A DNA stretch of 64,000 bases from an uncultured bacterium (GCA_947169285.1 CAMVPB010000005.1:545-64544), one strand, 5' to 3'; shown: positions 2,652 through 31,570, numbered from the stretch's first letter. Numbers and translations: made by a program. Notes: generated by a model from the sequence alone, not told the origin.

Positions 2652-2875
2652 TATACTCCCACAAAGAGCATGTTTTTTTACTTTTTTATATCAGGATAAG
2701 AGGTGCGGTATCGCAACACTAGAATTTAAAGATAAATTCTAGTGTTTTTGTGACACCACTTATTTTGCACTTGCAAAATTGCTCCCACAGAGCATTTTAG
2801 TTTAATGAATCTCTTTATTTAAAAGAAATAAATGCTCCCGTTTTTGATTTTTTTAGAAAATCTGTGGGAGCAAAT
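2652..2875 (+). repeat. Copy 1 of a ~220-bp interspersed structured noncoding repeat (the 220-bp repeat family)
   Basis: Aligns with 7316..7533 (inverted), 8566..8776 and 13237..13426. It contains the ctcccacaaagagc / gctcccacagagc / tctgtgggagc motifs and a hairpin acactagaattt...aaattctagtgt followed by a T-tract. Confidence 0.8.
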
Positions 2876-3107
2876 TTTCATTTAATTATCTCTTTTTTTA
2901 TCAATTTGAGAAATATTTAGACTAGTAAAAAACAAAAGATTGTGTTATATTGTATTTAGAAATGGTATTTATTAGTTGTTCTTTTAGATATAAGTGTTCA
3001 AAATAGGCTCTTGTATCGCACCATTATGGATTAAACAAACAACAAGTTTGTTTTTTTATTTGGTATAAAATTAACATTTTAGTAAATCATATTAGTGGAG
3101 GACTAAT

Positions 3108-3536
3108 ATGGGTGAAAATATAAATGCTTTAGATGAAATACACAAAGGATCATGCATGGGTTGTGACGCTATTAGTTTTGTTTTAGATAAAGTTGAAGAT
3201 AGAGAATTTAAAAGTGAACTTGAAAGTGAGTTTAATTTTTATAAATCTATTGAAAGTAGGGTAGACAAAATTTACTCAAAGTATGATGATGGGGAACCGC
3301 ATGAAACTGGAATTATGACTAAAGCTATGACTTGGTCAGGAATTGAAATGAAAACAATGAGTGATCATAGTAATTCTAAAATAGCTGAACTTTTGCTTCA
3401 AGGTGTTAACATGGGAATAATTGAGGGAAGAAGAATACTTAATAAAAAGAAAATAAATAACGAAGTAAGTAAAATAGTTTCAGAATATGTTGAAACACAA
3501 GAAAAATTTATGGAAACACTAAAAAGATATTTATAA
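3108..3536 (+). CDS. Hypothetical protein, 142 aa
   Basis: ORF with RBS (gtggaggact) upstream. No confident family assignment. Confidence 0.45.
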   Translation: MGENINALDEIHKGSCMGCDAISFVLDKVEDREFKSELESEFNFYKSIESRVDKIYSKYDDGEPHETGIMTKAMTWSGIEMKTMSDHSNSKIAELLLQGVNMGIIEGRRILNKKKINNEVSKIVSEYVETQEKFMETLKRYL

Positions 3537-3602
3537 TATCACTATAGAAAAGTGATATTTTATTTTTTTTAAAATATGTGTTAATATAATATTGGTGATA
3601 AT

Positions 3603-3962
3603 ATGAAAAAAGGTTTTACATTAGTTGAAGTATTAGTAGTAATAGTGCTTTTGTCAATAATAATTGCAATTGCCATCCCTTCTATATCAAAAATTAGAGA
3701 GAATATAATTGACAAAGAAGAACAAACACAAATAAAAGAAATTAAATCAGCAGCATCTTTTTATGCAAGAGATGAAAAAAAATCAAACTGTTGTATAACT
3801 GTTTCTGAATTAGTATCAAAAGGATATTTAAAAGGTAATGAAGAAAGTAAAGTAATTAATCCTAAAACTCATGAAGAAATAAATGTTAAAATTTATATAG
3901 ATAACAACAAAAAAATAACATATGATTATAGTGAAACTTGTGGAAATTGTGAAAACAATTAA
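3603..3962 (+). CDS. Prepilin-type N-terminal cleavage/methylation domain protein (type IV pilin/pseudopilin-like), 119 aa
   Basis: N-terminus MKKGFTLVEVLVVIVLLSIIIAIAIPS is the classic G|FTLxE prepilin leader plus hydrophobic helix. It is a lone gene with no pilus assembly neighbours. Confidence 0.6.
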   Translation: MKKGFTLVEVLVVIVLLSIIIAIAIPSISKIRENIIDKEEQTQIKEIKSAASFYARDEKKSNCCITVSELVSKGYLKGNEESKVINPKTHEEINVKIYIDNNKKITYDYSETCGNCENN

Positions 3963-28944: not shown

Positions 28945-29961
28945 ATGAAAAAGGAACAAGAAATAGGAAAAGAAGATAATAAAAAAGCAATAATAATTCT
29001 TTCAATTGCAATTGTTGTTGTTTTGGGGTTAATTATTTTAACGGCGCTTTTAAGTAAAAATGAAGAAGAAAAGAAATTAGATGATAATAATGGCACTCCA
29101 GTAAAAATTGATTTAAAAGATAAAGATTTATCAACCGAAACAAAAGAAGCTTCAAACGTTAAACAAGTTTCAAGTAAGATATATGTTGTTAAATATTTAG
29201 ATATTGATGGGGAGCAACTTGGAAAAACACAAAGGATTTCATCACTTGAAGATAGAGTTAATGAAAAGGCTCCTAGAATTGATGGTATGAGATTTGTGGA
29301 GTGGATTCAAAAATATGATGAAAATGAAGATGTATATTATTTTATAGCATCTTATAGACAAAATGTTGAAGCAGTTACAGAAGAAATTAAAGTAACACAC
29401 AAAACACCACCAACTTATAGTGCGACTGTAACACCAGTAGATAATGAAAACGCTGATAAACCAACATATGATGTCGATATTGAAGGAGAAGTTCCAGAAG
29501 CAGAGCTTGGAGAAGATGTATCAATATCAGAAGAATATGCTCATATTTTGGTGTTAAGATTTTATGCTCCAGAAGATGTAACAAAAGAACAAATAGAAAA
29601 TATGAAAGTAACTGTTCATGCTACTAATCCAAACGAAACAATTAATGAAGATCAATATTCATACAATGGAGAAGATACTAATAAATCTGGTAGAGAACTT
29701 CTAGATAGCACTGATGAAGAATATGAAAACGGAGTATTCTATTTTGATTATTATCAAGAAACAGATACTGGAACAAATACAACAATTGAAGTTTATTGGG
29801 GAAATGATCCTGATGCTAATGAAACGACTGAGCCAAAAGATGAATATGTTGAAGTGTATAATGTAAACATAGATAATGTAACTAATAGTCAAGAAACAGA
29901 AGAAAAGCCAGCAGAAGAATTAACGCCAGAGGAACCACAAGAAGATCAAGGACAAGAGTAA
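28945..29961 (+). CDS. Membrane-anchored acidic hypothetical protein, 338 aa
   Basis: Single N-terminal TM segment and a Glu/Asp/Thr-rich extracellular region. Confidence 0.45.
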   Translation: MKKEQEIGKEDNKKAIIILSIAIVVVLGLIILTALLSKNEEEKKLDDNNGTPVKIDLKDKDLSTETKEASNVKQVSSKIYVVKYLDIDGEQLGKTQRISSLEDRVNEKAPRIDGMRFVEWIQKYDENEDVYYFIASYRQNVEAVTEEIKVTHKTPPTYSATVTPVDNENADKPTYDVDIEGEVPEAELGEDVSISEEYAHILVLRFYAPEDVTKEQIENMKVTVHATNPNETINEDQYSYNGEDTNKSGRELLDSTDEEYENGVFYFDYYQETDTGTNTTIEVYWGNDPDANETTEPKDEYVEVYNVNIDNVTNSQETEEKPAEELTPEEPQEDQGQE

Positions 29962-30030
29962 TGTTCTTGTCTTTTTATTTTATATTTGATACAATGTATA
30001 TAGATGAAGAAAACTTCATATAATAAAAAG

Positions 30031-30107
30031 GACACACCTTAAAGAGTAGGTGTGCTCCGAGTTTTCGTTACACACTAGCCCTTGTTAAGGCTAGTGTGAT
30101 TTTTATT
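30031..30107 (+). ncRNA. Putative antisense RNA (type I antitoxin-like), copy 3
   Basis: Promoter aaacttcatataat. The terminator hairpin is again a different sequence (cacactagcccttgttaaggctagtgtg) plus T-tract. Confidence 0.4.
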
Positions 30108-30183
30108 TGGACAATAGTACTATAAATACTAGAGCAAACAAGAGGATGATTATTACAAAGTATGGGATTTCTTTTCTAGTCAT
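30103..30183 (-). CDS. Small hydrophobic peptide, 26 aa (MTRKEIPYFVIIILLFALVFIVLLSK), type I toxin-like paralogue
   Basis: Minus-strand ATG preceded by RBS ggaggtga. Minus-strand promoter TTGCAT-17-TAATAT retained at 30254..30282 with a diverged spacer. Confidence 0.55.
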   Translation of the reverse strand: MTRKEIPYFVIIILLFALVFIVLLSK

Positions 30184-30469
30184 AAATCATCACCTCCTCA
30201 AAATTTATAGTTTTAAGGAGCACACACTAACCTCTATTAAGATGTGTCTAAGTCATATTAACACAGTGAGTTTAGCTATGCAAATGCGTACTTTAAAGTT
30301 TTAATAATACAATAAATACATATAATTTAATTTCTGTTATATGTATTTTTTTAGTTTTAATTTATCAAATATTAAATATATACAAAATTTAATAATTTAC
30401 ACTGTAAATGTAAAATGTAAAACTAAAAAGTGCAGTTGATATATATATATATATATGGTATAATAGTCC

Positions 30470-31570
30470 ATGAAAGGTAGTGAAAATATGGAAGAAAAGA
30501 AAATGTCACCAATATTAATAGTTATACTATCAGTATTAGGTACATGTTTAGTAGGGTTTTGTGTATGGTATGGAGTAAACTATTTTAAAGATGATGTGGA
30601 GCCAGAAGGTCCAACCCCTGAAACTCCAGTTGAAGAACCAATAAACAATGTCACGGAAGATTATGTGGACGGAGAGTATCACACATACATTGTTTATTCA
30701 TCTAAAAACAGTGAAAACTATAAGAAAGTGGATTATAGCAAATTGTTTGTTTTAAAACCTTATGATGAAGCTGAAGAAGAAGTTTTAATAAGCGCTGATA
30801 ATGTAATTACTTTAAAGGGCTATCCTAATATTAAAGATAAATCATTAAAAGTAGATGAAAAAATAGTTTCTGCGTTAATTGATTCTGATTGTAGTGGTTC
30901 GATTTCAATTTATTACTTAACAGAATCTAAAAAACTATATTATGCTGATTTGTATTCAGATGAAGGCAATCATGAAGAGTTTAAAGCTAATTTAATTGAT
31001 ACTAATGTAGAAAAGATAGGATATGCAAATTTGAATAGATTTACTACTTGTGGTGGAAAAACTATTGCTTATAAAAAAGTTGGAGATGATAACAATTATA
31101 AGGCAATCGGATATTATGGTTTCGAACAAAAAAAGACAATCGTTGGGTCTAAAGATATGAAATATGAAAACTATGATGAAGCATTATACGATGGAGATTA
31201 TTCTAATATATTGGTATTATATAAGAACTATCCAAACAAAAAAATTGATGACAATTCAGTTATTTTAAAAGATTCAAAAGGAAAAGATTTATATATTAAG
31301 GGAGCATTTGTTAGTAGTGAGCAATATCAAAAGGAAAATAAGAATTATATATATTTCTTAGGTGAAGATGATTATTTATATCATTATCCATATGGATACT
31401 CTACTAAAAATGTAAAAGCAGTTAAATACAATGATTCAAAAGTTAAAAAAATAACACCTTCTAAAACGAAAGGCTGGGAACCTATTGTATTAACAATCGA
31501 ATATGAGAATGGTAAAACAGAAAAAATCAATGCAGATAGTTATGAAGGTTGTACTAATTTAGATTTATAA
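30470..31570 (+). CDS. Membrane-anchored hypothetical protein, 366 aa
   Basis: N-terminal TM segment (SPILIVILSVLGTCLVGFCVWYGV). No recognisable motif. Confidence 0.45.
   Translation: MKGSENMEEKKMSPILIVILSVLGTCLVGFCVWYGVNYFKDDVEPEGPTPETPVEEPINNVTEDYVDGEYHTYIVYSSKNSENYKKVDYSKLFVLKPYDEAEEEVLISADNVITLKGYPNIKDKSLKVDEKIVSALIDSDCSGSISIYYLTESKKLYYADLYSDEGNHEEFKANLIDTNVEKIGYANLNRFTTCGGKTIAYKKVGDDNNYKAIGYYGFEQKKTIVGSKDMKYENYDEALYDGDYSNILVLYKNYPNKKIDDNSVILKDSKGKDLYIKGAFVSSEQYQKENKNYIYFLGEDDYLYHYPYGYSTKNVKAVKYNDSKVKKITPSKTKGWEPIVLTIEYENGKTEKINADSYEGCTNLDL

Follow-up and report, generated by a model that had tools for sequence, protein, structure and literature searches.

What a bacterial chromosome keeps in a 508-bp spacer between two genes for hypothetical proteins is the question raised by a stretch of DNA from an uncultured bacterium (GCA_947169285.1 CAMVPB010000005.1:545-64544), whose 64,000 nucleotides (24.8% G+C) are here called the window, with positions counted from its first letter. 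The spacer, which separates a gene for 338 amino acids (28945-29961) from one for 366 amino acids (30470-31570), holds the third of three copies of a peptide/antisense-RNA module roughly 320-420 nt in length, in which a minus-strand gene for a hydrophobic peptide is met by a convergent plus-strand RNA. According to an earlier note on this DNA, the annotation track carries here an antisense open reading frame (ORF) of 65 amino acids and not the peptide gene; a gene of 81 nt, as this one is, is expected to fall below the length limits of common gene callers. We consider it probable that the module is a chromosomal, multi-copy, type I toxin-antitoxin-like system with a 3′-overlapping antitoxin, of a family not described before, in which the peptide would be toxic and the plus-strand RNA would neutralise it, as the architecture implies. 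For brevity the two partners are called toxin and antitoxin throughout.

The third copy is real, far beyond chance, since a profile of the three copies (nhmmer) found each of them with E = 1e-103 to 1e-111 and matched no other place in the window. The DNA round the three peptide ORFs aligns over ~350 nt with a mean column identity of 85%, so the third paralogous copy announced in the earlier note holds. The copies are laid out as follows, hairpins 1 and 2 and the 5′ element E5 being the RNA elements treated below:

23803-24120: copy 1; toxin ORF 23940-24020 (minus strand), hairpin 1 23865-23893, hairpin 2 23907-23935, E5 24054-24085
24268-24588: copy 2, the most divergent of the three; toxin ORF 24408-24488 (minus strand), hairpin 1 24331-24360, hairpin 2 24373-24404, E5 24521-24553
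29967-30352: copy 3, in the 508-bp spacer

Copies 1 and 2 form a tandem pair, with a phosphoketolase gene on one side and, on the other, the gene for aspartyl-tRNA synthetase with its T-box leader. A pattern derived from the coding part matched 10 metagenome contigs, which hold 13 further copies, two contigs carrying two each, and the comparison set on which the following rests is thus made of 16 copies, 14 of them complete (loci outside the window bear L numbers). A covariance model of the plus-strand RNA, run on 158 kb of collected sequence, returned exactly these 16 copies and no others. The longest invariant 18-mer gave only two chance matches in 185,579 species genomes, one in an actinomycete metagenome-assembled genome (L001 3105-3122) and one in Draconibacterium mangrovi (L002 1764-1781), both otherwise dissimilar to the module, and two scans of viral contigs, one of them with the 18-mer, yielded no match. 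The contigs L004 and L005 of close relatives both open at a (TA)n repeat immediately downstream of where copy 3 sits, and are uninformative on the module.

Whether the peptide ORF is a gene can be judged from the way in which it has changed. The three ORFs of the window, those of copies 1 and 2 taken from a six-frame scan, are:

30103-30183, minus strand: toxin ORF of copy 3, 26 amino acids, MTRKEIPYFVIIILLFALVFIVLLSK
23940-24020, minus strand: toxin ORF of copy 1, MARKDFSYFIIIILLFALVFIVLLSK
24408-24488, minus strand: toxin ORF of copy 2, MNKREKSYYFIIILLFILIFIVLIFK

A hydrophobic minus-strand ORF of 24-26 amino acids, with an ATG start, a Shine-Dalgarno (SD) sequence and a TAA stop, is kept in all 14 complete copies, the SD having the form GGAGG, GGGAGG or, in copy 1, TGAGG at 5-8 nt upstream of the ATG; even the highly divergent L009b, despite indels, still has an ORF of this class. 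The layout is that of a small hydrophobic toxin (< ~60 amino acids), a charged N-terminus followed by ~18 hydrophobic residues, so that the peptide is predicted to be almost entirely a transmembrane helix. Among the 26-residue copies, nonsynonymous (dN) and synonymous (dS) divergence are 0.18 and 0.46 overall, 0.39 and 0.65 in the charged N-terminus, and 0.065 and 0.338 in codons 11-26, the transmembrane part, all values being rough for such short sequences with RNA-level constraints superimposed; the low dN relative to dS in the transmembrane part points to a translated and constrained helix. The peptide consensus drawn up earlier from the three window copies is conserved in substance, except that K3-R4 and F10 of copy 2 fall outside it. 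Codons 11-15 (30139-30153, the DNA for I-I-I-L-L-F) are almost invariant, synonymous sites included, and the SD region GAGGUGAUGAU is complementary to codons 11-14 (AUCAUCCUC), which amounts to a second, downstream anti-SD.

The annotated ORF has not changed in this manner:

30107-30304, plus strand: ORF of 65 amino acids with a TTG start, antisense across the peptide ORF, its 5′ untranslated region (UTR) and its promoter

That it is a real gene is suggested by the open frame and its TTG start, and is contradicted by its being truncated or restarted in the other window copies (43 amino acids from a different start in copy 1, 23 amino acids in copy 2) and by its position antisense to a conserved peptide ORF, 5′ UTR and promoter; in the protein collection searched it had no homologue, nor did it, used as a handle, lead to further module copies. 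The chance that it is a gene is close to nil, and the suspicion that it is an artefact of the module is confirmed by the lack of conservation of its length and start between copies.

The peptide is encoded in a message for which the following features are predicted on the minus strand of copy 3:

30283 to 30255, minus strand: toxin promoter, TTGCAT-17-TAATAT, its -10 box extended by a TG that precedes it by one base
30249 to 30024, minus strand: predicted toxin mRNA, ~225 nt, its ends placed from promoter and terminator
30217-30248, minus strand: E5, the element at the 5′ end of the toxin mRNA, which repeats hairpin 1 in inverted orientation
30193-30220, minus strand: hairpin of 10 pairs between an anti-SD (CUCCUUAAAA) and the SD (UUUUGAGGAG), which would hide the ribosome-binding site

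The promoter had been described as preserving TTGCAT-17-TAATAT across a rewritten spacer, and this is correct for copy 3, whose spacer is indeed different, while copies 1 and 2 read TTGCAG-17-TAATAT; a TG precedes the -10 box in all three. In nearly all of the 14 copies TTGCA-N14-TGnTAATAT is kept and the spacers differ freely. The predicted message is unusually structured, with a minimum free energy (MFE) of -74.8 kcal/mol against -42.8 +/- 4.1 for shuffled sequences (z = -7.8). Its best-supported helix is the anti-SD/SD hairpin, in which 5 of the 10 pairs change on both sides over the 14 copies and 99.3% of the cells are paired. In the free full-length mRNA the predicted cost of opening the region from SD to AUG is 7.5-13.4 kcal/mol, and the toxin mRNA is thus predicted to contain elements that sequester its SD.

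The second remarkable feature of the message, one that the earlier note does not mention, is its 5′ end. The first ~30 nt (E5) resemble the antitoxin hairpin and are complementary to the 3′ terminator of the toxin mRNA itself, and the RNAalifold consensus joins E5 to this 3′ element by a closing helix of 28 pairs, in which 95.4% of the cells are paired and 7 pairs have changed on both sides, a level that none of 500 shuffles reaches. In single-sequence MFE folds 24-28 of these pairs form in each of the 14 copies, the closed fold being 7-17 kcal/mol better than the best local-only fold. At pair 76-242 related copies show a stepwise path of covariation, with C-G in L008, U-G in L014 and U-A in w2, and in L009b the two partners have been rewritten together, each from GUGUGCUCC to UGCAUUCC. 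Pairing of the 3′ element is more complete with the 5′ element (95.4%) than within itself (91.4%). When the 3′ UTR was made unavailable in folding, the SD entered the CUCC hairpin in 11 of the 14 copies, and the mean opening cost from SD to AUG went from 10.2 kcal/mol in the closed form to 12.2 kcal/mol, with a rise in 11/14 copies. The idea that the 5′-3′ closure frees the ribosome-binding site was rejected, the SD of the closed fold being paired with codons 11-14 and the opening energies lying ~2 kcal/mol apart.

Opposite to this message, the plus strand of copy 3 carries the features of a separate RNA gene:

29967-29995, plus strand: predicted antitoxin promoter (promoter scan), TTGTCT-17-TACAAT, again with a TG that precedes the -10 box by one base
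30003-30108, plus strand: predicted antitoxin RNA, ~105 nt, ends placed in the same way; 5′ hairpin, hairpin 1, variable linker, hairpin 2 and U-tract
30005-30018, plus strand: small 5′ hairpin, TGAAG-AAAA-CTTCA, present in 16/16 copies
30019-30024, plus strand: second -10-like box, TATAAT, 25 nt downstream of the first
30030-30058, both strands: hairpin 1, which read on the plus strand is the antitoxin's 5′ hairpin and read on the minus strand gives the toxin mRNA its 3′ element and intrinsic terminator, with a U-tract at 30029-30022
30071-30108, plus strand: hairpin 2 with ATTTTTATTT, the intrinsic terminator of the antitoxin (10 pairs, 6 of them G-C, in the terminator scan)
30314-30352, plus strand: T2, an AT-rich hairpin with a T-run (z = -3.5), an accessory terminator beyond the toxin promoter

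The two predicted RNAs converge, and their overlap comprises the whole 3′ UTR of the peptide mRNA, ~83 nt of perfect complement from the stop codon to the terminator; the U-tract of hairpin 2 runs into the end of the toxin ORF, sharing sequence with its last two codons and its stop, and the minus-strand terminator scan places the toxin terminator inside hairpin 1, at 30055-30032. An extended -10 box, TGnTAnAAT, occupies the same alignment columns in 15 of the 16 copies (in the exception, L009a, the TG abuts the -10 hexamer), and the sequence upstream of it is unrelated between copies, coming from different neighbouring genes. By its sequence, then, the plus strand is predicted to hold a separate antisense gene, equipped with a promoter and a terminator, whose RNA complements the toxin mRNA. 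Variants of the second -10-like box (TATAAT, TAAAAT, TAGAAT, TACAAT, TATTAT) keep positions 1, 2, 5 and 6 fixed and leave position 3 free, and the box could serve as an alternative start for a shorter antitoxin isoform. T2 occurs in 6 of the 14 copies, neither copy 1 nor copy 2 among them, and its stems differ by a U-A pair exchanged for C-G (ACATAT vs ACACAT); its role might be to stop a long antisense transcript that reads through, or to shield the gene downstream.

The antitoxin of copy 3 also folds far better than chance (MFE -37.6 kcal/mol; shuffles -17.7 +/- 3.1; z = -6.4), and the three-hairpin fold over all 16 copies has 95.7% of its cells paired and 6 pairs changed on both sides, a score reached by 0/500 shuffles, which bears out the compensatory changes in RNA hairpins that had been claimed from three copies. 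In L013 and L009b the small 5′ hairpin reads GTAAG-GAAA-CTTAC, two adjacent pairs having been swapped with the pairing intact. Hairpin 1, separated from hairpin 2 by 12 nt in copy 3, is 95.6% paired when read on the plus strand and 91.4% paired as a local minus-strand hairpin. In hairpin 2, 4 of 10 pairs change on both sides and stay paired: pair 101-115 is AU in 6 copies, GC in 5 and UA in 4, pair 103-113 is CG in 9 and AU in 7, and pairs 97-119 and 102-114 show one double change each. It had been said that these plus-strand terminator stems differ completely in sequence while keeping position and pairing; pairing is kept, but complete difference was an overstatement, since copies 1 and 3 have the 7 basal pairs (CACACTA/TAGTGTG) in common and are told apart near the loop only, where a single pair has been exchanged with compensation (U-A to G-C); in copy 2 three pairs are compensated and the stem has a bulge. 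Because hairpins 1 and 2 are palindromic as DNA, it matters which strand is read, and the excess of G-U cells (13) over A-C mismatch cells (5) in the plus-strand reading favours the plus-strand RNA itself as a folded molecule under constraint. Given that the ORF, both promoters and the terminators are conserved and the helices covary over the 16 copies, the selection on RNA structure and expression proposed earlier is supported.

The same palindromes invite another view, namely that the module is an intergenic repeat that combines bidirectional terminators with AT-rich, promoter-like sequence, its short ORF being incidental. Hairpins 1 and 2 would act as terminators in both directions, and in a genome of 25% G+C short ORFs and promoter-like sites are common (56 such sites were found against 50 expected). 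Such an element would have no reason to keep ORF, ATG, SD spacing and stop in 14/14 complete copies, L009b with its indels included, or to hold dN well below dS in the transmembrane part, and the strongest covariation lies in the hairpin that pairs with the SD, which would be purposeless without translation; we hold this view to be very unlikely.

On the toxin-antitoxin reading, the parts may be put together as follows. The minus strand would yield a ~225-nt mRNA for a 26-residue, nearly all-transmembrane peptide, and this message would silence itself in two ways: the upstream CUCC stretch, or alternatively codons 11-14, would pair with the ribosome-binding site, and the first ~30 nt would pair with the terminator hairpin at the message's own 3′ end, closing the molecule. 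From its own extended -10 promoter the plus strand would yield the convergent ~105-nt antitoxin, which would contact the 3′ UTR, probably first by loop-loop contacts of the two complementary hairpins, before a long duplex forms that RNase III would cut. As the target of the antitoxin is also the partner of the mRNA 5′ end, antitoxin binding must open the closed mRNA; we infer, with some uncertainty, that pairing would displace the 5′ end from the 3′ element, leaving it exposed and CUCC free to lock the ribosome-binding site. Transcription of both RNAs, their ends, the RNase III cleavage and the displacement step all belong to this model.

One may go further and propose a 5′-end mimicry, in which the first large hairpin of the antitoxin copies the 5′ end of the toxin mRNA and both compete for the 3′ terminator hairpin. 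The free mRNA, closed from its 5′ end to its terminator, would be a stable, sealed and inert message; the antitoxin would evict the 5′ end, so that CUCC passes to the ribosome-binding site and both RNA ends are exposed to nucleases. This proposal is a tentative one, possible rather than likely. If true, it would account, in a new toxin family, for the control of translation by an antisense RNA that binds 170 nt further downstream, at the 3′ end.

The distribution of the modules raises the question of mobility. At the copy-3 site the relative L003, whose downstream protein is 64% identical, lacks the module and has a spacer of 118 bp against 508 bp here, an empty site, and this comparison delimits an inserted unit of ~29980-30395. 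In L003 (480-640) the upstream terminator directly meets the ATTTACA...GTAAAAC stretch of the downstream gene's promoter region. The corresponding site holds different module subtypes in L008 and L011, and the phosphoketolase/aspartyl-tRNA synthetase site, with two modules here, has one in L014 and one plus an extra gene of 274 amino acids in L011. The earlier suggestion that the copies mark borders of mobile DNA was not borne out. By Pfam, the neighbours in the window are phosphoketolase, aspartyl-tRNA synthetase and seryl-tRNA synthetase, with TrmD further downstream, all housekeeping genes, and the ORFs that flank other loci resemble, by their start sequences only, FtsA, FtsZ, ribosomal protein S4, UppS, UvrC, tyrosyl-tRNA synthetase and NusA. 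No transposase or integrase domain was found in ten neighbouring proteins scanned, nor anything suggestive of one in the ORF lists of the other loci, and plasmid and phage collections gave no match to the module (blastn) or the peptide (tblastn), a low-complexity filter being able to hide matches to the latter; nothing in these scans puts a copy within, or at the edge of, a prophage, plasmid or integrative element. Given the variable occupancy and yet no mobile-DNA signal, the modules turn over between relatives but mark no recognisable mobile DNA.

A small non-autonomous mobile element, of the kind of a miniature inverted-repeat transposable element, could nevertheless look like this, with the inverted repeat formed by hairpin 1 and E5 serving as transposition ends rather than in RNA function. 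Multiple copies, the empty site and the exchange of subtypes at one site would all be expected of it, and the two ends of the inserted unit (29978-29995 and 30372-30390) show a weak, AT-rich inverted similarity, TATATTTGATA against the reverse complement TATATTTAATA, which in 25% G+C could easily be chance. The inverted repeat is internal, however, and as transposon ends it was rejected, the homology reaching 60-150 nt beyond both arms and including both promoters; no target-site duplication is definable, the same scans of neighbouring proteins and ORF lists speak against a transposase, and the two arms change together so that RNA pairing is preserved. Mobility and toxin-antitoxin function are not mutually exclusive, but that the repeat has a transposition role in place of an RNA one is very unlikely.

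Type I systems of Gram-positive bacteria are characterised by antisense RNA on the 3′ side, SD sequestration and 5′-3′ long-distance interactions (PMC8594479, PMC8309996), and the match of the module's layout to this supports its reading as type I. In searches with E up to 10 the peptide matched no type I toxin family in Pfam or NCBIfam; the RNAs found no match at the gathering threshold in Rfam, which holds 13 families of type I antitoxin RNAs such as Sok (PMC8594479), and at E up to 10 only chance-level matches to unrelated families.

The closest parallels are bsrG/SR4, bsrE/SR5, yonT/SR6 and txpA/RatA of Bacillus subtilis, in which a small hydrophobic toxin is likewise accompanied by a convergent, 3′-overlapping antisense RNA, as the coordinates show for the present module. 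The duplex is an RNase III substrate in those systems, and by analogy is proposed to be one here. The module differs from them in having no sequence or profile similarity, the toxin-family searches (NCBIfam, Pfam) for the TxpA/RatA and BsrG/SR4 types included, in a peptide of 26 rather than 30-59 amino acids without a charged C-terminal tail, and in lying among housekeeping genes where the B. subtilis systems are prophage-borne. To our knowledge, a 28-bp closure of the 5′ end onto the antitoxin target site has not been described for the B. subtilis systems. On binding the 3′ end of bsrG, SR4 brings about cleavage by RNase III and also makes the sequestration of the distant SD tighter (PMC8309996; for the last point also PMC3531473).

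In Staphylococcus aureus, sprG/SprF and sprA1/SprA1AS are also multi-copy and chromosomal with an antisense RNA overlapping the 3′ end (PMC8309996, PMC8594479), but SprA1AS acts in trans via its non-overlapping 5′ domain, and the present module has no family match. A full-length toxin mRNA closed by 5′-3′ pairing is what the module, by prediction, has in common with hok/Sok of plasmid R1 and aapA1/IsoA1 of Helicobacter pylori (PMC8594479), where the closed message is described as translationally inert and SD sequestration as central to control (PMC8594479, PMC6733600, PMC5416894). There, the antisense RNA is directed at the 5′ part of the mRNA, and the message becomes active on 3′ trimming; in the present module it is the 3′ partner of the closing helix that the antisense RNA covers. 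Both hok/Sok and aapA1/IsoA1 are Gram-negative families with no sequence relation to the module, which matched no Hok/Gef family in Pfam and whose predicted antisense RNA lies on the 3′ side, not at the 5′ leader.

The CD-RCd pairs of Clostridioides difficile, as described in PMC7699646, resemble the module in their host, which is Gram-positive and low in G+C as the module's is suggested to be, in pairing hydrophobic toxins with antitoxins encoded antisense in cis, and in having several paralogues; they reside in prophages and other mobile elements, which they help to maintain, unlike the copies here with their lack of mobile-element genes and of phage or plasmid matches. As for par (Fst/RNAII) of Enterococcus faecalis pAD1, convergent RNAs with a common terminator region and an SD held in a stem-loop of the toxin mRNA are found in both (PMC8309996). 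The first contact in par is made at the terminator loops (PMC8309996), comparable to the loop-loop contacts proposed here, and the interaction spreads to complementary 5′ direct repeats, whereas the two 5′ elements of the present module are alike and not complementary; none of the peptides has the APxxxG / PxxxGC motif found in the Fst/Ldr superfamily, and no Fst (Pfam) or RNAII (Rfam) family was returned. The module is hence akin to the 3′-overlap type I systems, with the closed-mRNA principle common to hok and aapA1, and, having no Pfam, NCBIfam or Rfam match and no Fst or SprA1 motif, is a member of none of these families.

An alternative to the toxin-antitoxin reading is a gene for a small membrane protein with a physiological role in the membrane, controlled in cis by its antisense RNA, the latter and the mRNA folds only tuning its level. 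The housekeeping chromosomal contexts, the lack of a phage or plasmid link and the absence of a toxin family match agree with such a gene, but multiple diverged copies per genome, a tandem pair among them, presence and absence at the same site between relatives, a ribosome-binding site hidden in two redundant ways and an almost purely hydrophobic peptide do not. Multiple copies, variable presence, a hidden ribosome-binding site and hydrophobicity are the very signatures by which type I toxins have been sought (Fozo 2010, according to PMC8594479), and we regard a non-toxin role as unlikely.

Several observations weigh against the toxin-antitoxin reading and temper the confidence placed in it. 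The promoters, the RNA ends and the toxicity are predictions, and the toxin promoter (30255-30283) lies below the threshold of the consensus scan. The peptide is without a curated toxin family and the RNAs are without an Rfam family. Hairpins 1 and 2 being palindromic, their covariation is not assignable to one strand alone; that of the 5′-3′ helix stems largely from the divergent L009b and related subtypes within a set of 16 non-independent copies, and inverted repeats can also be homogenised by recombination. Finally, the predictions hide the ribosome-binding site whether the message is closed or bound by the antitoxin, and with mean opening costs of 10.2 and 12.2 kcal/mol in these two states the predicted switch is a modest one.

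If the reading of the module as a type I system is right, it adds a family that is recognised by no protein or RNA library and known only from metagenome contigs. The 16 natural variants are a ready mutational test of its RNA structures, and the helix that closes the 5′ end onto the antitoxin target offers a testable model for the way in which 3′-binding antitoxins control translation at the 5′ end, an effect of the kind described for bsrG/SR4.

Copy 1 looks attenuated, given that its SD is TGAGG and not GGAGG, with one resulting mismatch in the anti-SD hairpin, and that its toxin terminator has lost the U-tract, CCTACTCATT standing in its place.

Directly downstream of the module, five loci carry a gene for one of a set of paralogous proteins whose N-terminal anchor MEEKKxSPILIVIL... 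is conserved and whose bodies are variable, and the AT-rich region between module and gene is also conserved:

30470-31570 of the window: the 366-amino-acid, membrane-anchored protein
2012-2947 of L008: anchor-protein family
2831-3805 and 9624-10448 of L011: anchor-protein family
6508-7317 of L015: anchor-protein family

The promoter of the window gene (30436-30464) reads TTGATA-17-TATAAT with the spacer filled by (TA)8, and in the close relative L005 (1-95), whose protein falls in the same 90% cluster, the repeat is (TA)13 and the spacer 27 nt long; from these two sequences the promoter looks phase-variable. A T-box leader lies upstream of the aspartyl-tRNA synthetase gene (24728-24880; 48 bits, E = 3.5e-9, below the Rfam gathering score of 93, which is why a scan at default settings passed over it), and together with the strong GGAGG ribosome-binding sites it suggests a low-G+C Gram-positive lineage for the host.

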